Virus record (IMG/VR): IMGVR_UViG_2563366822_000012
Span: 1 to 27,206 of that record
Strand: one strand, 5' to 3'
DNA from: a virus
Taxonomy: Duplodnaviria > Heunggongvirae > Uroviricota > Caudoviricetes
DNA length: 27,206 nt
The notes beneath the pieces are model-generated. The model did not search any database and was not told the origin of the DNA. It was given only the letters and a program-made list of their open reading frames with translations. Positions within the stretch are counted from its first letter, which is position 1, and the number at the start of each line of letters is the position of its first letter. Position numbers and translations under genes: made by a program. Below are positions 1 through 25,625 of the stretch, piece after piece.

Positions 1-933
1 ATGGACAACGACAAAATTGATCAACACAGCGACGAAATTGAAGTTGAGAGCGAAGAAAAAGAGCGCGGCAAAAAAATAGAAATAGATGAAGACCGACTCC
101 CCTCCCGGGCGATGGCAATTCATGAGCATATCCGCCAGGATGGTGAAAAAGAGCTGGAACGCGACGCAATGGCGCTACTGTGGTCAGCCATTGCGGCGGG
201 TCTGTCGATGGGCGCTTCGCTACTGGCAAAAGGGATATTTCATGTCGAACTGGAAGGAGTGCCAGGCAGCTTCTTACTGGAGAATCTCGGTTATACCTTT
301 GGTTTTATTATCGTCATTATGGCCCGCCAGCAATTATTTACCGAAAACACCGTGACTGCGGTACTACCCGTCATGCAAAAACCGACAATGAGCAACGTCG
401 GCTTACTTATGCGATTATGGGGCGTCGTGCTGCTGGGTAATATTCTCGGGACAGGTATTGCTGCATGGGCATTTGAATATATGCCTATCTTCAATGAAGA
501 AACTCGCGATGCATTTGTCAAAATCGGCATGGATGTGATGAAGAACACCCCCAGCGAGATGTTTGCCAACGCGATCATTTCCGGCTGGCTGATCGCCACT
601 ATGGTTTGGATGTTTCCTGCAGCGGGTGCGGCAAAGATTGTGGTGATTATTTTGATGACCTGGCTTATTGCACTGGGTGACACCACCCACATCGTTGTCG
701 GTTCTGTTGAAATCCTCTATCTGGTGTTTAACGGCACGCTGCACTGGAGCGATTTCATCTGGCCCTTCGCACTACCTACTTTAGCGGGGAACATCTGCGG
801 CGGCACCTTTATCTTCGCGTTAATGAGTCATGCACAGATTCGTAACGACATGAGCAACAAGCGTAAAGCAGAAGCACGCCAAAAAGCAGAACGTGCGGAA
901 AACATTAAGAAAAATGATAAAAACCCAGCATAA
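1..933 (+). CDS. yfdC: YfdC-like inner membrane protein (formate/nitrite transporter family); host chromosomal gene flanking the prophage
   Basis: ATG at position 1, 310-aa ORF with several long hydrophobic segments; recognised from memory as E. coli YfdC, which sits beside argW. Not verified by alignment. Confidence 0.85.
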   Translation: MDNDKIDQHSDEIEVESEEKERGKKIEIDEDRLPSRAMAIHEHIRQDGEKELERDAMALLWSAIAAGLSMGASLLAKGIFHVELEGVPGSFLLENLGYTFGFIIVIMARQQLFTENTVTAVLPVMQKPTMSNVGLLMRLWGVVLLGNILGTGIAAWAFEYMPIFNEETRDAFVKIGMDVMKNTPSEMFANAIISGWLIATMVWMFPAAGAAKIVVIILMTWLIALGDTTHIVVGSVEILYLVFNGTLHWSDFIWPFALPTLAGNICGGTFIFALMSHAQIRNDMSNKRKAEARQKAERAENIKKNDKNPA

Positions 934-1008
934 ATGGCGAGGGTTTAAGCAATCGAGCGGCAGCGTACTTACCCCGCAGTCCATTAGCGGGTATACTCAT
1001 GCCGCATT

Positions 1009-1083
1009 GTCCTCTTAGTTAAATGGATATAACGAGCCCCTCCTAAGGGCTAATTGCAGGTTCGATTCCTGCAGGGGACACCA
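1009..1083 (+). tRNA. argW: tRNA-Arg (anticodon CCU); phage attachment target
   Basis: 75-nt sequence GTCCTCTTAGTTAAATGGATATAACGAGCCCCTCCTAAGGGCTAATTGCAGGTTCGATTCCTGCAGGGGACACCA: acceptor stem, D-arm, anticodon loop CT-CCT-AA, T-arm GGTTCGATTCC and 3' CCA are all visible; matches my memory of E. coli argW. Confidence 0.9.
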
Positions 1084-1244
1084 TTTATCAGTTCGCTCCC
1101 ATTCGTACCAGTCCGCAAAATCCCCTGAATATCAAGCCTTCCGTAGATTCACAGTTCGTCATGGTTCGCGTCAGATCGTTGACAGCCGCACTCCATGACG
1201 GGTAAAAAGTGGATAAAATAATTTTACCCACCGGATTTTTACCC

Positions 1245-2402
1245 ATGCTCACCGTTAAGCAGATTGAAGCAGCAAAGCCGAAAGAAAAACCATACCGCCT
1301 TCTCGATGGTAATGGCCTGTACCTTTATGTCCCTGTGTCAGGGAAAAAGGTATGGCAGCTTCGCTACAAGATTGACGGTAAGGAGAAAATCCTGACCGTC
1401 GGAAAATATCCGCTAATGACTTTGCAGGAGGCAAGAGATAAAGCATGGACCGCGAGGAAAGACATCTCGGTTGGCATCGATCCGGTAAAAGCGAAAAAGG
1501 CTTCGTCTAACAACAATTCCTTTAGTGCGATTTACAAGGAATGGTACGAGCACAAGAAGCAAGTCTGGTCAGTAGGCTATGCAACTGAACTTTCAAAAAT
1601 GTTTGATGACGACATTTTACCTATCATCGGCGGCCTTGAAATTCAGGATATTGAGCCGATGCAACTGCTGGAAGTAATCCGCAGATTTGAAGATCGCGGT
1701 GCAATGGAGCGAGCAAATAAAGCCCGCAGAAGATGCGGCGAGGTTTTCCGTTACGCTATTGTCACTGGTAGGGCTAAATATAATCCGGCACCTGACCTTG
1801 CTGACGCCATGAAGGGATACCGTAAGAAGAACTTCCCGTTCCTTCCTGCAGACCAGATCCCGGAATTCAACAAAGCACTGGCAACATTTTCAGGAAGTAT
1901 CGTATCGCTCATTGCCACCAAAGTTTTACGCTACACAGCCCTAAGAACGAAAGAGCTTCGTTCCATGCAATGGAAGAACGTCGATTTTGAAAACAGGATT
2001 ATCACTATCGACGCCAGTGTGATGAAGGGACGCAAGATTCATGTTGTCCCGATGTCGGACCAGGTGGTTGAACTTCTCACTACGCTAAGCTCCATCACCA
2101 AACCAGTATCAGAGTTTGTTTTTGCCGGGCGCAACGATAAGAAGAAGCCAATCTGCGAGAACGCGGTATTGCTTGTGATCAAACAAATCGGCTATGAGGG
2201 TCTGGAAAGCGGTCACGGATTCAGGCATGAATTCAGCACGATTATGAACGAGAACGAATGGCCTGCTGATGCTATTGAAGTGCAACTGGCACATGCCAAC
2301 GGCGGATCTGTGCGCGGGATTTACAACCATGCTCAGTATCTCGATAAGCGCAGAGAAATGATGCAATGGTGGGCGGATTGGATCGATGAAAAGGTGGTGT
2401 GA
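1245..2402 (+). CDS. intS: Phage integrase, tyrosine recombinase (P4-type), 385 aa
   Basis: Directly downstream of the tRNA. The ORF track begins at a GTG (1209), but ATG 1245 (MLTVKQIEAAKPKEKPYRLLDGNGLYLYV...) gives the canonical P4-type integrase N-terminus. The C-terminal part contains the expected catalytic-type residues (…HGFRHEF…, …RGIYNHAQYL…). Resembles CPS-53 IntS from memory. Confidence 0.9.
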   Translation: MLTVKQIEAAKPKEKPYRLLDGNGLYLYVPVSGKKVWQLRYKIDGKEKILTVGKYPLMTLQEARDKAWTARKDISVGIDPVKAKKASSNNNSFSAIYKEWYEHKKQVWSVGYATELSKMFDDDILPIIGGLEIQDIEPMQLLEVIRRFEDRGAMERANKARRRCGEVFRYAIVTGRAKYNPAPDLADAMKGYRKKNFPFLPADQIPEFNKALATFSGSIVSLIATKVLRYTALRTKELRSMQWKNVDFENRIITIDASVMKGRKIHVVPMSDQVVELLTTLSSITKPVSEFVFAGRNDKKKPICENAVLLVIKQIGYEGLESGHGFRHEFSTIMNENEWPADAIEVQLAHANGGSVRGIYNHAQYLDKRREMMQWWADWIDEKVV

Positions 2403-2595
2403 TCCACCTATATCGCCGTACAATTATCCAACTCACATAATATGGCGAGAGTAAAGCCTTTAGGTTGGTTGTTTTTTTGGGTTTATTCATATAATATTCT
2501 ATATGTACGACAATTAAATTTATCTAATATTTAATTGCAATTTAAAAAATAACAAACTCACATTATACACTATAAAACAACATAAGGATTATGAC

Positions 2596-3183
2596 ATGTT
2601 GGTAGATAAGATATTGCACAAAACTGGATTATTTGACTTTCTGGACAAAATTTTAATAACCCGTCCTTTCGCTATTGTATCCAATAACTGCTGGGGCTAT
2701 AGACTATATAAAAATATAGGGCTTGAATATAATACTCCCTTTATCGGCCTGTACATCACAGCATCTGATTTTGTTGAAATGTGTATTAATTTGGAGCATT
2801 TTTTATCAAGAGACATTGTTGAAAGCGATTTCATTAATACAGAGCATAATTTCCCCGTTGCATTTGTGGATGGAGTAAAAATATACTTTATGCATTATAA
2901 CTCAAGGGCAGAAGCCATGGATAAATGGAATAGAAGAATAAAAAGACTTCAATCTTTTATATCATCACATGGCCTTGATAGAGTTGTTTTTAAAATGTGT
3001 GATAGAGATGGAAGTTACATGGATGTAATGAAATTTAATGAGTTAAAAATAAAAAGAACGATATCTTTCACCTCGAAAGAAAACAAAGGACTCGTTGAGA
3101 GCAATGGTAATATTTACCCGGGAGATGTATTGTTCAACTTCAGACACAGATATTATCTCAAGTATATCAAAACATTTAGATAA
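2596..3183 (+). CDS. Hypothetical cytoplasmic protein, 195 aa; low-GC cargo gene; possible DUF1919-like polysaccharide-modification protein (tentative)
   Basis: ATG 2596 preceded by AAGGA about 9 nt upstream. Visibly AT-rich compared with neighbours, with an AT-rich upstream region 2460-2590. N-terminal motif FAIVSNNCWGYRLY resembles what I recall as the DUF1919 signature. No transmembrane segments. Confidence 0.7.
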   Translation: MLVDKILHKTGLFDFLDKILITRPFAIVSNNCWGYRLYKNIGLEYNTPFIGLYITASDFVEMCINLEHFLSRDIVESDFINTEHNFPVAFVDGVKIYFMHYNSRAEAMDKWNRRIKRLQSFISSHGLDRVVFKMCDRDGSYMDVMKFNELKIKRTISFTSKENKGLVESNGNIYPGDVLFNFRHRYYLKYIKTFR

Positions 3184-3584
3184 CCACTCGACAAGAATAT
3201 CTAAAGGAAATTATCAGTAGTATTAAAGATTTAGTGTCATTCAGGTAAAAGACTTAAAAAAGAATGACACTTGTCTCAATCCTTTAGTTTCGATAAAGCA
3301 ATCTGGTCCAACCTAACTCTCACGAGTAAAGATAGTATCTCGACACTATCGAGTCAGGTGTCTGGAAATTCAGAAAGATGACCAAAGCAAAATATGCCTT
3401 CCAGAATGTGAAGGCAGTCTATTGAAGCTACTTACTGATGAATATGCAAGAAAGATAGCCAATGGCACTTCAAAGCTGAAATTTAACATTGTCGTAATTA
3501 GTCATTTACTTTGAAGAATGACTGAATAATGTGATGAATCTGCAGAATTTTTAACGTGGCATAACATTCTGAATGCCTTCGATA

Positions 3585-3752
3585 TCAACTGGCTGCCACC
3601 TCCGGTGGAGGCGTAAATTCGCCGTTACTGTATGTATAGCCCTGCTGAATGTCAGCGGGGCATTCAACCCAGATTAACGAGGGATGAAATCTATCGGTCG
3701 GGTCAATATCAGTTAATTCCATTACCACATTGTTTTCAATTCGTGCCCACAT
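3585..3752 (-). CDS. Short ORF (55 aa) immediately downstream of the tail fibre gene; possible truncated tail-fibre assembly or accessory protein remnant
   Basis: ATG at 3752-3750 (MWARIENNVVMELTDIDPTDRFHPSLIWVECPADIQQGYTYSNGEFTPPPEVAAS), stop at 3587-3585. Below the ORF-track size cutoff. Call is positional only; related argW prophages carry a tfa pseudogene here. Confidence 0.3.
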   Translation of the reverse strand: MWARIENNVVMELTDIDPTDRFHPSLIWVECPADIQQGYTYSNGEFTPPPEVAAS

Positions 3753-9684: not shown

Positions 9685-9774
9685 ATAAACTCCGGATACA
9701 AAAAACCCGCCAAATCTGCTTTGTCAGTTATTTACATCGCAGAAGATGTGGCGGGAACCTAATATTTTTAATTA

Positions 9775-10269
9775 CTATCTGAGTTGAACATCAATGGAAT
9801 AAATATCACCACTCTTTATAAATTTAGAATCTGTCCTTTCATCAAAAGATTCAAATGACTGTACCTTTAAAAACTTTTTCATTTTATTTTCAAAAATACT
9901 TTCATTAACACCAGTTAAATACTTGAACGCTCTACCAGCAAGGACCTCATTACTTAAATCCATTGTGTTTTTATTGTCTTTGCAAAACCAAACAATAACC
10001 TTTTGTGGGCATGATGGATTATAAACAGATATATAAAACTGCGGCTCATATTTTTCATCAGCGTCATCACTAAGCATTTCTTCAGAAGATAATTCTCTTC
10101 TGAATTCATATTGCCGCTTAGTTATTCCTTCATCCTTTATTATCTCTTGCTTAACTGGTGCAATACCTATAGAAGAGATTAATTCTGACTCATTAAAGCT
10201 GAACTTACACTCCTCCGCGGCCAAGTTAAAAGATAAAAGTGCAGATATAAAAAAAACAAAGATACGCAT
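9775..10269 (-). CDS. Hypothetical secreted protein, about 164 aa, with N-terminal signal peptide; low-GC moron inside the tail operon
   Basis: ORF track gives 9775..10287; the internal ATG at 10269 has a GAAGGGA Shine-Dalgarno and yields MRIFVFFISALLSFNLAAEE…, a classic Sec signal peptide. Strongly AT-rich versus flanking tail genes; about 90-100 bp intergenic spacers on both sides, unlike the tightly packed neighbours. Confidence 0.7.
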   Translation of the reverse strand: MRIFVFFISALLSFNLAAEECKFSFNESELISSIGIAPVKQEIIKDEGITKRQYEFRRELSSEEMLSDDADEKYEPQFYISVYNPSCPQKVIVWFCKDNKNTMDLSNEVLAGRAFKYLTGVNESIFENKMKKFLKVQSFESFDERTDSKFIKSGDIYSIDVQLR

Positions 10270-10368
10270 AATCATCCCTTCAATCATTTGTAAGGAATGA
10301 TTATATTAACTACTTAAAGCTGAAAACCCAAATTATGCCAGACAAAAACACATTAATCATTTTGTACA

Positions 10369-12201
10369 CTACCTGAACCGCGTATAGCCAACATCATGGC
10401 TGACATCAAAACCGCTGGATCGCGTTTCCATAACCCGCATACCCGGAGGCGAATTCACAAAAGATACCTTGATCTCACCATCAACTTTTGGCACAGAAGC
10501 TTTGTTAATCATGAAGGGATTCGAGCCTGTGGCATCGGAGGCGTTGTTTGCCTGAGCCGGATCCACTACCGGATAAGGAGTGTATCCCCGTGGCGGTATT
10601 CCCGTCCCATAAGCATCATAAGCACCCGCGCCCCACTGCGCCGAGTTAATGGCATCGACCGTGTCACCGGAACTGTCGGTAAACCATTCAATAATCGGCT
10701 TCAGCTTGTCCCACATATCCTGAAACCACTTAACAACCGGTCCCCAGTTATTGATCACCATCCCCAGCGGCGACCAGGCAAAAACCTTCTTCAGAAGTTC
10801 CCAGCCTGCCTCAAAATAAGGACCAATAGTTTCCCAGAGCTTCTTGAAATAAGGTCCGACAACATCCCAGTTAGTGATAATTAATCCCGCAGCCAGAGCA
10901 ATCGCCGTCGCAATCATGCCAATCGGCGTCATCGACATGATCCTGCTGACAATACTGATGGCACCGCCCACGCCCATCAATCCCAGTTTCAGAATCGCAA
11001 GACCGGCAGCAAGCCCGACGACGCCGCGAATAACCCGGGGATTTTCATCCGCAAACTTCGTGAATTTCTCCCCCAACTCCCCCAGCCACTGCGTGATGTT
11101 CTTAGCGTCACCAGAAAATGCGCCGCCAATAGCCGCAAGGCCGTTAGTTGCGGTCCCCGTCATTGCCTCCCACAGGTTGGACAGCGTACCAAGCTGGGCC
11201 TGAACACGTTTATTCAGGCTGGCCTGTTTATTCATCTTCTGCTGGATCTGATCGTAGCCATCCTTTCCTTTATCGATCAGCGCATTGACCACCTGAAGGG
11301 TTTCGGCATCATCACCAAATATTGCCTTAAGTACACCGGTTCGCTTAACGTCGGTCAGTTTTCGCAGCTTTGCCAGTTGCCTGAACATGTTATCAAGACC
11401 GCCAAAACTCCCTTTGCCATCAGTAAAATCGAGCTGTACCCCGAGTTTCTGGCGGGCCATGATTTTATTGACGTCCCTGATTTTCTTAACGCTTAATCCG
11501 GACTGGATAACTTTTCGCAGGGCATTACCTGCCGACTCCCCGTTCATCCCCATTTGATCCATCATGACACTGATGGGGGCAAGACTCTGTGCAGCCTGAA
11601 GACCGTCCTTGTTCACCATCTTCAGAACAGAGCTGGTTTTAGTGAAGAATGACAACATGTTGGTGTCGTCAACGCCCAGATAAAACGCCTTCTGAATTGT
11701 GTCGAACAGCCCCATCATGTCTTCTGAGGCCGTTCCGGTAGCATCCTGCATCTTTGCAGCAAACTCAGCAGCCGCTTCCGGTGTTTTTTTCAGTTGTACC
11801 GCAAGATAAGCTGTCGCTTTACCCACACCACCAAGAATGTTTTCTGCCGGGATCCCCTGACGCACCAGCATCTGCATCATGTTCTGGAAATCAGCCGTTG
11901 TACCGGGTAGCTGGTTACCCAGGCCAATAGCCAGTTTATTGATGTCCTGAAAGCTCTTTCCAACCTCGCCGTTCGCATCCATCATGGCGACTTTCAGCCC
12001 GGTGGCGGCGTTTTCCTGATCGGCATAAGATTTCAGGGAAAGCGTCAGACCCGCTGCCAGTCCGCCACCAAGCGCCAGCCCACCCTGTGACGCTTCTTCC
12101 GCCTGGCGTTTAAATCCCCGGATTTTCTTTTGCATTTTCGACAGCGCGGGAGAAAGCCTGTCGACACCGGTGATCAACGCCTTAAGCTCAAATTCAGCCA
12201 T
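10369..12201 (-). CDS. Tail tape measure protein
   Basis: 610-aa ORF directly downstream of the frameshifted chaperone pair; Ala/Gly-rich with hydrophobic stretches typical of tape measure proteins; ATG at 12201. Confidence 0.9.
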   Translation of the reverse strand: MAEFELKALITGVDRLSPALSKMQKKIRGFKRQAEEASQGGLALGGGLAAGLTLSLKSYADQENAATGLKVAMMDANGEVGKSFQDINKLAIGLGNQLPGTTADFQNMMQMLVRQGIPAENILGGVGKATAYLAVQLKKTPEAAAEFAAKMQDATGTASEDMMGLFDTIQKAFYLGVDDTNMLSFFTKTSSVLKMVNKDGLQAAQSLAPISVMMDQMGMNGESAGNALRKVIQSGLSVKKIRDVNKIMARQKLGVQLDFTDGKGSFGGLDNMFRQLAKLRKLTDVKRTGVLKAIFGDDAETLQVVNALIDKGKDGYDQIQQKMNKQASLNKRVQAQLGTLSNLWEAMTGTATNGLAAIGGAFSGDAKNITQWLGELGEKFTKFADENPRVIRGVVGLAAGLAILKLGLMGVGGAISIVSRIMSMTPIGMIATAIALAAGLIITNWDVVGPYFKKLWETIGPYFEAGWELLKKVFAWSPLGMVINNWGPVVKWFQDMWDKLKPIIEWFTDSSGDTVDAINSAQWGAGAYDAYGTGIPPRGYTPYPVVDPAQANNASDATGSNPFMINKASVPKVDGEIKVSFVNSPPGMRVMETRSSGFDVSHDVGYTRFR

Positions 12202-17853: not shown

Positions 17854-17966
17854 CGTATTTCTCCTGATTAGAAGTTCAGATTTTTCAGTGCATTCAGTGC
17901 AGAGCCCACATCCTCAGCGTCGCGCAGGGACAGTGCGCCATAGCCCCCGGCCATGAATGCTTTGGC

Positions 17967-18518
17967 CTAGGTACGGGAGAGTCCGACATCACGCAGGACT
18001 CTTTCGATTTTTTTCTGTTCGGGGATTTCCCCGCGGGCCAGTGCGTTCTTGACGTCGCTGATCCGCGCCTCGTCGTTAGACGGGAACGTCACCAGGCTGA
18101 CTTCCCAGAGGTCGATTTCTTTCAGCAGAAAGGCTTCTTTGCTCCGGTCGTATTCCCAGTCTTTCAGGACGTACCCAATAGAAAGGCCGGTTAACGAACC
18201 GGCCTTCATGTGTGCATGTGCGCGTTTTGCGAGGGGATCATCATCAATAAGCAACCGTCCCCTGACGTAAAGCCCGACATCGTCTTCCTTCATTTCGGTG
18301 TAAACACCGATGGGTTCATCCATGCGGTGCTGCCAGAGCAGCGCAGGTAACGCTTTTCTGTCACTCCACGCCCGCAGGGAAGCAGCAAATGCCCCGGACA
18401 TCACCACATCATCGTGGCTGTCCTTTACACCAAAGACGGAGCCATACCCTTCAAACTCACCGGAGTCACTGACAGATTTCAGACTCAGCGGTACATCAAG
18501 ACGTTGTTTCGTCTGCAT
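17967..18518 (-). CDS. Prohead protease, HK97 family; apparently C-terminally truncated by an in-frame TAG
   Basis: ORF track gives 17967..18554; ATG 18518 has an AAGGA Shine-Dalgarno and is the more plausible start. The frame ends at TAG (17969-17967) but continues open for 28 more codons (AKAFMAGGYGALSLRDAEDVGSALNALKNLNF) to a TAA at 17870-17868, just before the capsid RBS. Confidence 0.85.
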   Translation of the reverse strand: MQTKQRLDVPLSLKSVSDSGEFEGYGSVFGVKDSHDDVVMSGAFAASLRAWSDRKALPALLWQHRMDEPIGVYTEMKEDDVGLYVRGRLLIDDDPLAKRAHAHMKAGSLTGLSIGYVLKDWEYDRSKEAFLLKEIDLWEVSLVTFPSNDEARISDVKNALARGEIPEQKKIERVLRDVGLSRT

Positions 18519-23051: not shown

Positions 23052-23570
23052 TCACTTTGGCAGTCCGGGGATCGATATTTGCGCCTGCTGCTCAAGCCTT
23101 TCGATTCTTGCTATGAGTTGCGGTTTTTTGATCCTGCCCCAGCGGTTCAGCAAGCGTCCTGACATACTGGCAACATCCTTTTCCTTCATGAACTCCAGCA
23201 TTAACTCGTTGTGCTCTCTTTGGTATGAGTGAGCCAACTCCATCAGCCTGTCACGCATCCAATTAAATGCTTTGATAAACGCCTCTTTGATGGCGGCAGC
23301 TTTTTTGCCGGTAAACGACATGATGATGTACATCGCGCCGTCTTTGGAAATTTCATATTCAACATACTGATTACCCTTGTGTTCATAGGTAACCCGCGAA
23401 AAGTTGCTGGTTAGAAATTCATCCGAACAGTCTAGCTTTTCGATTTTCTGAATGATGTGGTGATGCTGCTTGTCGAAGTAAGCTGCTACCTTGCGGGAGG
23501 TTGTGATCACGCGATCACCAGAAACAACCACCATGTCCCGGAAATCGAGATTAGCCAATTGATGATTCAT
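23052..23570 (-). CDS. Rha-family phage regulatory protein
   Basis: ORF track gives 23052..23783; the internal ATG at 23570 (MNHQLANLDFRDMVVVSGDRVITTSRKVAAYFDKQHHHIIQKIEKL…) matches the usual Rha N-terminus. The upstream 71 codons overlap a structured intergenic region and are probably not translated. Confidence 0.75.
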   Translation of the reverse strand: MNHQLANLDFRDMVVVSGDRVITTSRKVAAYFDKQHHHIIQKIEKLDCSDEFLTSNFSRVTYEHKGNQYVEYEISKDGAMYIIMSFTGKKAAAIKEAFIKAFNWMRDRLMELAHSYQREHNELMLEFMKEKDVASMSGRLLNRWGRIKKPQLIARIERLEQQAQISIPGLPK

Positions 23571-23710: not shown

Positions 23711-23737
23711 ATATAAAAAAGCCCCGCACCGCGAGGC
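23711..23737 (-). terminator. Putative intrinsic terminator downstream of the lysis cassette
   Basis: Minus-strand GCCTCGCGGTGCGGGGC (imperfect hairpin) followed by TTTTTTAT, about 35 nt after the Rz stop. Confidence 0.4.
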
Positions 23738-23770
23738 TCATTAAATTGACTTTGTGATTTGCAAAAAAAT

Positions 23771-24232
23771 TTATTTCAGGCATTGCGTCCTGATGTATTC
23801 CTGCAGGTAGTTAACCTGCGCGGTTATCCTGTCGATTCCGCTTCGTAGACGGTAATAATTGAGTTCAGCATCTGCTGTAAGTCTTGGGCTTTCTCCATCG
23901 CCCATGCTGCTGGCTCCGGTCGTTGACTTTGCACAGGTGGCGGCGACTTGCAGGCGCTTACGCCCAGCAGAAACATCAGCACGGAGACTTTCGATAGTCG
24001 CGTTAGCATCAGCAAGCTCCTTTGTATATCTGGCATCGAGTTCTGCTACGTCACGTTGACGCTTCTGCATATCAGAGATCGTCGCCATAGCCGAATCTAA
24101 TGCCATAGCGTTTTCGTCGCGCTGTTTTTTGTATTCAATGGCTTTATTGTGGTAATGATTAGCTGACCAGACGAGAGAACCGAATAAAGTCAGGAGAAAA
24201 GCAGAAATAACCAGCTTATAGCGAAGTTTCAT
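23771..24232 (-). CDS. Rz: Rz i-spanin (inner-membrane spanin subunit)
   Basis: ORF track starts at TTG 24265; ATG 24232 gives [27 protein letters not shown]…, an N-terminal membrane anchor followed by a coiled-coil region, laid out like lambda Rz; follows R. Confidence 0.85.
   Translation of the reverse strand: MKLRYKLVISAFLLTLFGSLVWSANHYHNKAIEYKKQRDENAMALDSAMATISDMQKRQRDVAELDARYTKELADANATIESLRADVSAGRKRLQVAATCAKSTTGASSMGDGESPRLTADAELNYYRLRSGIDRITAQVNYLQEYIRTQCLK
23824..24009 (-). CDS. Rz1: Rz1 o-spanin lipoprotein, embedded in the +1 frame of Rz
   Basis: ATG 24009 gives MLTRLSKVSVLMFLLGVSAC-KSPPPVQSQRPEPAAW…: signal peptide with lipobox-like LGVSAC, then a proline-rich mature region. Entirely nested within Rz, as in lambda. 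Confidence 0.65.
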   Translation of the reverse strand: MLTRLSKVSVLMFLLGVSACKSPPPVQSQRPEPAAWAMEKAQDLQQMLNSIITVYEAESTG

Positions 24233-24692
24233 TAACCACCCCGCCAGCTTCTTTGAATTTGGCAATCAGACTATCGATCTTGTGTTCATACTGACCGTAG
24301 CCAGCACCGGGCAATGAAGCCCAAATATTGCTGCAACGATCAATAGCCTGACGAATATCACCGCGATCAATCATCGGCAAAGCGCCACGTTCCTTAATCT
24401 GCTGCAGCGCAACAGCGTCCTGGCTTTTGGGAGAGAAGTCTTTCAGGCCAAGCTGCTTACGATAGGCATCCCACCAACGGGAAAGAAGCTGATAGCGACC
24501 GGCTGCTGTTGATTTGAGTTTGGGGTTTAGCGTGACAAGTTTGCGAGGGTGATCGGAGTAATCAGTGAATAGTTCTCCTCCTACAATGACGTCATAACCA
24601 TGATTTCTGGTTTTCTGCCGTCCGTTATCAGTTCCCTCTGACCATGCCAGCATATCGAGGAACGCCTTACGTTGATTATTGATTTCCACCAT
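24216..24692 (-). CDS. R: Endolysin, lambda R-type lytic transglycosylase
   Basis: 158-aa ORF; [39 protein letters not shown]… is near-identical to my memory of lambda R over most of its length. Confidence 0.93.
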
Positions 24693-24999
24693 CTTCTACT
24701 CCGGCTTTTTTAGCAGCGAAGCGTTTGATAAGCGAACCAATCGAGTCAGTACCGATGTAGCCGATGAACACGCTCGTTATATAAGCGAGATTGCTACTTA
24801 GTCCGGCGAGGTCGAGAAGATCACGAATGAACCAGGCGATAATGGCGCACATCGTTGCGTCGATTACTGTTTTTGTAAACGCACCGCCATTATATCTGCC
24901 GCGAAGGTACGCCATTGCAAACGCAAGGATTGCCCCGATGCCTTGTTCCTTTGCCGCGAGAATGGCGGCTAACAGGTCATTTTTTTCTGGCATCTTCAT
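24676..24999 (-). CDS. S: Holin/antiholin, lambda S-type class I holin with dual start motif
   Basis: 107-aa ORF beginning MKMPEK… (Met1 and Met3 give the S107/S105 pair as in lambda); near-identical to lambda S from memory; ATGA overlap with R. Confidence 0.93.
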
Positions 25000-25395
25000 G
25001 TCTTACCCCCAATAAGGGGATTTGCTCTATTTAATTAGGAATAAGGTCGATTACTGATAGAACAAATCCAGGCTACTGTGTTTAGTAATCAGATTTGTTC
25101 GTGACCGATATGCACGGGCAAAACGGCAGGAGGTTGTTAGCGCGACCTCCTGCCACCCGCTTTCACGAAGGTCATGTGTAGAAGGCCGCAGCATAACTAT
25201 CACTGATGAATTCAGGATAGCCAGTGGCTACGGCTCAGTTTGGGTTGTGCTGTTGCTGGGCGGCGATGACGCCTGTACGCATTTGGTGATCCGGTTCTGC
25301 TTCCGGCATTCGCTTAATTCAGCACAACGGAAAGAGCACTCGGTGCATTTAAGACAAGCTCCATAAGGGAGAATGCTCTTACCTGTTACACAGAT

Positions 25396-25453
25396 ATAAA
25401 AAATCCCGAAACCGTTATGCAGGCTCTAACTATTACCTGCGAACTGTTTCGGG
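25396..25453 (-). terminator. tR'-like intrinsic terminator ending the short PR' transcript (6S RNA-like)
   Basis: Minus-strand CCCGAAAC…(GCAGG…CCTGC)…GTTTCGGG extended hairpin followed by ATTTTTTAT; matches the lambda tR' region from memory. Confidence 0.6.
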
Positions 25454-25559
25454 ATTGCATTTTACAGACCTCTCAGCCTGCGATGGTTGGAGTTCCAGAC
25501 GATACGTCGAAGTGACCAACTAGGCGGAATCGGTAGTAAGCGCCGCCTCTTTTCATCTC

Positions 25560-25625
25560 ACTACCACAACGAGCGAATTAACCCATCGTTGGGTCAAATT
25601 TACCCAACTTTATTCAAAAAGTCAA
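25560..25625 (-). promoter_or_regulatory. Late promoter PR' (-35 TTGACT, -10 TAAATT, 17-bp spacer) with adjacent qut site for Q loading
   Basis: Minus-strand TTGACT (plus 25620-25625) and TAAATT (plus 25597-25602); the downstream segment TTGACCCAACGATGGGTTAATTCGCTCGTTGTGGTAG matches lambda PR'/qut from memory with one mismatch. Confidence 0.6.

Follow-up and report, generated by a model that had tools for sequence, protein, structure and literature searches.

The 27,206-nt stretch of viral DNA that we analysed (the window) contains four lysis genes in the order found in phage lambda, S-R-Rz with Rz1 embedded in Rz, all of them full length and read from right to left on the minus strand. The first-pass annotation had described a lambda-style cassette with a nested spanin pair and a dual-start holin, and every sequence feature that it named is present: the genes are intact, their reading frames are open, and the expected motifs and homologies are in place (Table 1). 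The interval that it flagged, 23771..24265 on the minus strand, is the maximal open reading frame (ORF) of the third gene, Rz, counted from a TTG codon; the biological start of Rz, however, lies 33 nt downstream from this TTG, and S lies outside the interval.

Table 1. Features of the lysis cassette and of its late-expression signals, in window coordinates.
Feature	Position	Strand	Remarks
Intrinsic terminator hairpin	23719..23739	-	just 3' of Rz; 9-bp stem, 6 G-C pairs, then T run
Rz i-spanin, 153 aa	23771..24232	-	N-terminal transmembrane anchor, periplasmic domain, Cys100 and Cys151
Rz1 o-spanin, 61-aa prolipoprotein (+ stop)	23824..24009	-	embedded in the +1 frame of Rz
Rz1 ribosome-binding site, AAGGAG, 7-nt spacer, ATG	24007..24022	-	motif and spacing as in lambda Rz1
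R endolysin, lambda-type lytic transglycosylase (GH104), 158 aa	24216..24692	-	homology
S holin/antiholin, 107 aa, dual start Met1-Lys2-Met3	24676..24999	-	second start 24993
sdi stem-loop, AUCCCC-UUAUU-GGGGGU	25005..25021	-	just 5' of both S starts
tR' terminator, end of the 6S leader transcript	25398..25456	-	alignment to lambda: stem and T run identical
pR' late promoter, TTGACT-17 nt-TAAATT	25597..25625	-	consensus scan
Q late-gene antiterminator, 207 aa	25668..26291	-	Pfam PF03589 (Antiterm), E = 1.3e-57

Genes and late-expression signals of the cassette

The S protein begins with MKMPEK, encoded from ATG AAG ATG at 24999..24991, which bears out the dual start ascribed to it. It matches the TIGR01594 holin_lambda equivalog (124.1 bits against a cutoff of 55.05) and PF05106 (E = 7e-30; 103.7 bits against a cutoff of 23.8). 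Hydropathy above 1.2 in 17-residue windows forms strong clusters at window starts 9-13 and 39-53 and weak ones at 64 and 71; a third transmembrane segment is suggested by the identity of 104 of the 107 residues to lambda S. The approximately 190 nt 5' of S are likewise identical to lambda, the sdi stem included. This stem is part of the MFE and centroid folds alike, and the fold of the 81-nt sdi region is no better than that of shuffled sequence (z = 0.16), so that the significance of sdi derives from its identity to lambda rather than from its fold energy.

One substitution in S, F64L, was found in none of the 36 lambda-type S genes in related viral contigs and is present in the prophage of E. 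coli PC6 (NZ_CP080253; discussed below). The timing of lambda S is sensitive to single missense changes; with F64L in place, normal timing of S therefore cannot be asserted.

The R protein is identical to lambda R at 150 of 158 residues. In a PDB sequence search, its residues 1-156 matched the solved lambda lysozyme (PDB 1am7, E = 8.8e-102), and the catalytic Glu19 is kept within the motif LAWSEGT. Neither Pfam nor NCBIfam assigned R to a family. Rz matches PF03245 (Phage_lysis; E = 4.3e-40, 137.3 bits against a cutoff of 25.4) and PHROG 13 (E = 2e-69); NCBIfam contained no model matching either Rz or Rz1. The anchor of Rz consists of MKLRYK followed by the transmembrane segment LVISAFLLTLFGSLVWS, whose hydropathy over 17 residues peaks at 2.05 (residue 7), and the periplasmic part would, by homology, form two coiled-coil helices joined by a linker. 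Its two cysteines, Cys100 and Cys151, align with C99 and C152 of lambda Rz.

The late-expression signals are present as well. The Q protein is identical to that of Escherichia phage HK106 (NC_019768) at 206 of 207 residues. Both hexamers of pR' are identical to those of lambda, and the spacer between them has the same two differences from lambda as that of HK106; the 6S region and the late signals as a whole are near-identical to lambda. At the place in HK106 that is homologous to our hairpin after Rz, a rho-independent terminator is annotated. The tRNA was the sole hit of an Rfam search over the whole window, in which neither 6S nor sdi matched a family. Downstream of Rz, the window carries a Rha-family gene.

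The frame embedded in Rz

Rz1 lies wholly within the +1 frame of Rz, as the first-pass annotation had stated, starting 223 nt after the Rz ATG and ending 53 nt before the Rz stop. Expressed as fractions of the length of Rz, the start falls at 223/462 = 0.48 and the end at 409/462 = 0.89; for embedded o-spanins, a start at approximately 0.4-0.5 and an end at approximately 0.9-1.0 of the i-spanin gene length have been given as the criterion (PMC6139136). Residues 1-19 constitute the signal peptide, which leads into the lipobox VLMFLLGVSA-C20 and leaves a mature chain of 42 aa. The lipobox cysteine, the absence of which had been named as the observation that would overturn the reading, is present: the precursor passes a PROSITE-style lipoprotein rule, with two K/R among its first seven residues. 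The residue at position +2 is Lys, not Asp, which implies sorting to the outer membrane. Profile searches matched Rz1 to Pfam PF06085 (Rz1; E = 7.9e-19, 67.6 bits against a cutoff of 27.9) and to PHROG 3198 (Rz-like spanin; E = 5.6e-28). The description of the mature domain as Pro-rich is only partly apt. The chain begins CKSPPPVQSQRPEP and contains five prolines, all of them in its first 14 residues, with no pentaproline (P5) run, whereas the mature chain of lambda Rz1 (41 residues) has ten.

Because a frame of this kind can open by chance, we considered whether the embedded ORF might encode nothing, in which case the phage would have an i-spanin alone. Of the codon shuffles of Rz, 12.6% produced an ORF of 60 aa or more in an alternative frame, Rz1 is left unannotated by PGAP/RefSeq in PC6, HK106 and HK97, and NCBIfam, as noted, offers no model for it. 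When the lipoprotein rule is applied in addition to the length, however, only 20 of 20,000 shuffles (0.1%) yield such an ORF. The profile matches to two collections, together with a Shine-Dalgarno sequence conserved at the spacing seen in lambda, likewise speak for a gene, and each of the 83 sequences compared (80 IMG/VR viral contigs retrieved with Rz, plus HK106, lambda and the window) retains the embedded ORF with its lipobox cysteine.

Among 41 distinct Rz sequences, diversity at third codon positions of Rz is 0.26 before the overlap, a value inflated by mosaic N-terminal alleles of Rz, 0.033 inside it, and 0.20 after it, where the rise follows the Rz1 stop within the same sequence block. 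The fall is thus six- to eightfold and coincides exactly with the overlap, in which the third positions of Rz are the second positions of Rz1; it is the signature of purifying selection on both frames. A chance origin of the frame is already refuted at the level of sequence, and we assign it virtually no probability. Within Rz1, the window carries Tyr55 and Ala57, compared to Ser and Val in most relatives.

The single cysteine of the mature chain leaves Rz1 without an equivalent of Cys29, the second cysteine of its lambda counterpart. In lambda, one of the disulfides formed through Rz C152 or Rz1 C29 suffices for spanin function (PMC5295617). Since either linkage is sufficient there and Cys151 is present in Rz, the absence of the Cys29 linkage should be no defect.

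The boundaries of both spanin genes could be drawn further upstream, as TTG 24265 and ATG 24036 open the maximal ORFs, giving an Rz of 164 aa and an Rz1 of 70 aa, and even at 70 aa the Rz1 precursor satisfies the lipobox rule, its cysteine then falling at position 29. Neither codon, however, is preceded by a Shine-Dalgarno sequence. TTG 24265 lies inside R, and the annotated Rz of HK106, like the PGAP annotation in E. coli PC6, has the ATG start corresponding to 24232 and a length of 153 aa. The codon at 24036 is not conserved, being Thr in many relatives among the 83 sequences, while the Met at 24009 is invariant. We therefore rejected both upstream starts, and consider the longer boundaries very unlikely; the mature Rz1 would be identical with either start, 24036 or 24009. 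For annotation, this means that the prophage has a complete lysis cassette, to which Rz1 should be added at 24009..23824, with the Rz start set to 24232.

Mosaic relationships and the predicted course of lysis

HK106, a plaque-forming phage, carries a cassette with 97.5% DNA identity to that of the window over 1.39 kb, comprising the same four genes in the same order and the same N-terminal allele of Rz. Its cassette proteins are 98-99% identical to ours (S at 105 of 107 residues, R at 156 of 158, Rz at 151 of 153). The two differ in that HK106 has a GIY-YIG nuclease gene after Rz, where the window has the Rha-family gene, and a shorter leader from pR' to S. The prophage of E. coli PC6 is closer still over this region, with one nucleotide difference in the 1,948 from S through the Rha gene, and its S, R, Rz, Rz1 and downstream Rha proteins are 100% identical to those of the window. 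It is otherwise differently built, with another Q, tRNA genes upstream of S, and other terminase and head genes. The lysis genes and the Rha gene together are thus a mosaic module in circulation. The 1.4-kb cassette is also 95-96% identical to those of HK633, HK022, HK75 and the mEp phages, and parts of the query were matched in 3,966 of 5,426 complete E. coli genomes.

Lambda itself (NC_001416, 45186-46427) has the same gene order, a dual-start S, an S leader with sdi, and pR'/6S/tR'. Its Rz1 is likewise in the +1 frame of Rz, at an offset of 220 nt, with the same Shine-Dalgarno spacing and a Cys20 lipobox; the mature chain has two cysteines, compared to one in the window. R and Rz overlap by 4 nt in lambda and by 17 nt in the window, and the gene downstream of the cassette is bor in lambda and the Rha-family gene in the window. 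In amino acid identity to lambda, S (97%) and R (95%) stand apart from Rz (47%) and Rz1 (35%). An alignment of the spanins to the lambda pair, which had been proposed as a check, agrees in frame, Shine-Dalgarno spacing and Cys20, but at these identities the pair is the HK97-family allele and not that of lambda.

The Rz protein of HK97 differs from that of the window by one residue from residue ~54 on (the C-terminal ~100 aa), and the embedded ORF of HK97 is identical to our Rz1 at 56 of 61 residues (five differ). HK97 Rz has a lambda-like N-terminus and a length of 145 aa, whereas the anchor and first ~50 residues in the window are another allele. A survey of spanins places HK106, HK97, HK022, P22 and Sf6 in the 'HK97' embedded o-spanin family and reports that the o-spanin of HK97 is predicted to be highly helical (Kongari et al. 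2018, PMC6139136). The Rz1 of the window accordingly falls outside the lambda o-spanin family and in the HK97 embedded family, yet is expected to work like lambda Rz1. Taken by their alleles, S and R are those of lambda, the C-terminal two thirds of Rz together with Rz1 those of the HK97 family, and the membrane anchor of Rz a third allele common to HK106.

The structural genes of the window point to a different set of relatives. They are of the SfIV/SfII/SfI type, with 99.5-99.7% identity around the protease, and the Shigella phages SfIV, SfII and SfV have head and tail genes in common with the window as well as a lysis module in the same genome position, upstream of HNH and terminase genes. 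The lysis modules of SfIV, SfII and SfV all include a holin, a lysin, Rz and Rz1, and a dual-start holin is reported to be absent from SfI, SfII, SfIV and SfV (PMC3851460). A related prophage in E. coli SCU-123 has a different holin and an Rz of 145 aa. The prophage of the window sits at the argW tRNA gene, and its structural module resembles that of the SfIV/SfII-like myoviruses.

With structural genes of the SfIV type and a lysis module of the lambda/HK106 type, the window holds a recombinant of the sort that is usual for lambdoid phages, and the cassette is, in all likelihood, the late-operon lysis module of a mosaic lambdoid prophage. The flagged stretch belongs to an ordinary, intact lambda-type lysis cassette in an E. 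coli prophage, of a kind already described and essentially the same as those of phages HK106, HK97 and lambda. Its interest is that of one more case of lambdoid mosaicism: S and R of the lambda type, the Rz anchor of HK106, and the C-terminus of Rz and Rz1 of the HK97 type are combined with head and tail genes of the SfIV type. The cassette makes no open question testable.

For a cassette of this type, the order of lysis events can be predicted from the paradigm established for lambda. Q would let RNA polymerase from pR' read past tR' into S-R-Rz/Rz1. Translation of the S mRNA from Met1 would give the S107 antiholin, with the extra charge of Lys2, and translation from Met3 the S105 holin, in a ratio presumably set by the sdi stem-loop. 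S105 would build up in the inner membrane and then suddenly form holes, through which R, a soluble lytic transglycosylase, would exit and cut the peptidoglycan. Rz, held by its inner-membrane anchor, and Rz1, a lipoprotein of the outer membrane, would assemble into a periplasm-bridging complex, which would then disrupt the outer membrane, probably by membrane fusion. We infer by this analogy that the cassette could be expressed, that Rz1 would be lipidated, and that the genes would serve in the timing and execution of lysis. The first-pass annotation had taken holin/antiholin timing and spanin function to be intact, and the sequence supports that reading, which extends to timing with the reservation that F64L imposes.

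The head protease and the state of the prophage

The intact cassette had been set against a nonsense codon in the head protease, and this codon is present as described: a TAG at 17969..17967 on the minus strand, in place of the CAG found in SfIV and vB_EcoM-606R7. It cuts off the last 33 codons of a frame that is open up to the capsid gene, and the S78 protease domain itself is complete. The change is from CCAGG to CTAGG at 17971..17966, a Dcm methylation site; Dcm sites are classic hotspots for deamination of 5-methylcytosine, yielding amber codons. In HK97, the C-terminus of the protease reportedly targets the enzyme into the prohead (Duda, Oh and Hendrix 2013), so head maturation is probably impaired.

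Of the complete E. coli genomes, 1,043 contain the 61-mer, only 3 of them in the TAG version, and the lysis cassettes of these three genomes are different from that of the window. In SCU-123, the protease allele is designated 'internal stop' (pseudogene) by PGAP; this prophage has a structural module 97.2% identical to that of the window, with a different lysis cassette and a different Q. The common amber could reflect either common descent or recurrence; the protease gene is nearly invariant across all relatives.

By the evidence of the amber codon, decay of the prophage has begun, and the cassette could then be a silent relic of a dead prophage, comparable to the lysis genes that cryptic prophages retain, intact in appearance and no longer expressed or lysing. 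The nonsense codon, in an allele that is called a pseudogene elsewhere, is consistent with this, as is the uncommon F64L substitution in S, and further defects may lie beyond the window, for instance in the regions for immunity or replication. Yet no break is seen in any of the four ORFs, in Q, pR', tR' or sdi, or in the Shine-Dalgarno sequences, and the identical set of proteins in the differently built PC6 prophage speaks for a working module that was exchanged recently. Moreover, only one base has changed in the protease, which makes any decay very recent. We therefore regard a silent relic as unlikely, and favor a cassette that is intact and probably lysis-competent within a prophage that has only begun to decay.

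The same amber is found in prophages whose structural modules are ~3% apart and whose lysis cassettes differ, so that the truncation might be recurrent or tolerated and not a one-off lesion. On this basis, the prophage might persist as an element that is competent for lysis and defective in its capsid. Its tail, Q and lysis genes, being intact, could then benefit the host, for instance by the release of tailocin-like particles or of cell contents. We consider such maintenance highly improbable, and simple recent decay far more likely.

Lysis gene variants and the gene downstream of Rz

The embedded Rz1 gene is left out of the RefSeq/PGAP annotations of HK106, a phage with a closely similar lysis cassette, of phage HK97, and of the Escherichia coli strains PC6 and SCU-123, both of which carry prophages. 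Despite the missing annotation, an Rz1 ORF with a lipobox is found in the sequences of HK106, HK97 and PC6; the annotated Rz of SCU-123 is 145 aa long. The S gene of the window encodes F64L, a substitution that not one of the 36 lambda-type S genes from related viral contigs has, and Rz1 has Tyr55 and Ala57, where most relatives have Ser and Val, both changes being silent in Rz. The PC6 prophage, with its near-identical lysis module, shares the S and the Rz1 variants.

Immediately 3' of the Rz terminator is a gene for a Rha-family regulator, a position occupied by bor in lambda and by a GIY-YIG nuclease gene in HK106. PC6 encodes a Rha-family protein identical to that of the window, indicating that this gene moves together with the lysis genes. 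The longer ORF listed for it (243 aa, from 23783), which extends across both the Rz stop codon and the terminator, probably overstates the length of the gene.

Features of the lysis region, head protease, tail module and prophage end (window positions)
Feature	Position	Strand	Details
Host gene	1..933		formate/nitrite-transporter family; within prophage end 1..2402
tRNA-Arg(CCT)	1009..1083		within prophage end 1..2402
Tyrosine integrase	1209..2402		within prophage end 1..2402
Low-GC island	2401..3600		31-35% GC
DUF1919 protein	2596..3183	plus	195 aa; in low-GC island
Insertion	9709..10375		~620 nt; 35% GC
Insertion ORF	9775..10287	minus	170 aa; signal-peptide-like N-terminus; PHROG 8976 (function unknown)
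Head-protease amber	TAG 17969..17967; site 17966..17971	minus	CCAGG to CTAGG at Dcm methylation site
Rha-family regulator	23052..23570	minus	172 aa; Pfam Phage_pRha and ORF11CD3; TIGR02681
Rz1 codons 55-57	23839..23847		Tyr55/Ala57
S codon 64	24808..24810		F64L

The head-protease amber

Dcm sites are classic hotspots for the deamination of 5-methylcytosine. Of the 1,043 complete E. coli genomes in which this segment occurs, only 3 have the amber (SCU-123, SCU-108 and AH21H025). The amber-bearing prophage of SCU-123 has a different lysis cassette, and its structural module is only 97.2% identical to the window; the amber common to the two may reflect either recurrence or shared descent.

Integration site and accessory genes

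The window begins with a host gene, a tRNA-Arg(CCT) gene and the integrase gene, which places the prophage at an argW-type site; its relatives among the Shigella phages, SfI, SfII, SfIV and SfV, integrate at thrW instead (PMC3851460). Adjoining the integrase is a low-GC island encoding a DUF1919 protein, in the same position as the O-antigen modification genes of Shigella serotype-converting phages (PMC3851460).

A second low-GC segment, identified by comparison with the SCU-123 prophage, is inserted between the tape-measure and DNA-circularization genes. Its 170-aa product has no Pfam match, and the insertion looks like a moron inside the tail module.
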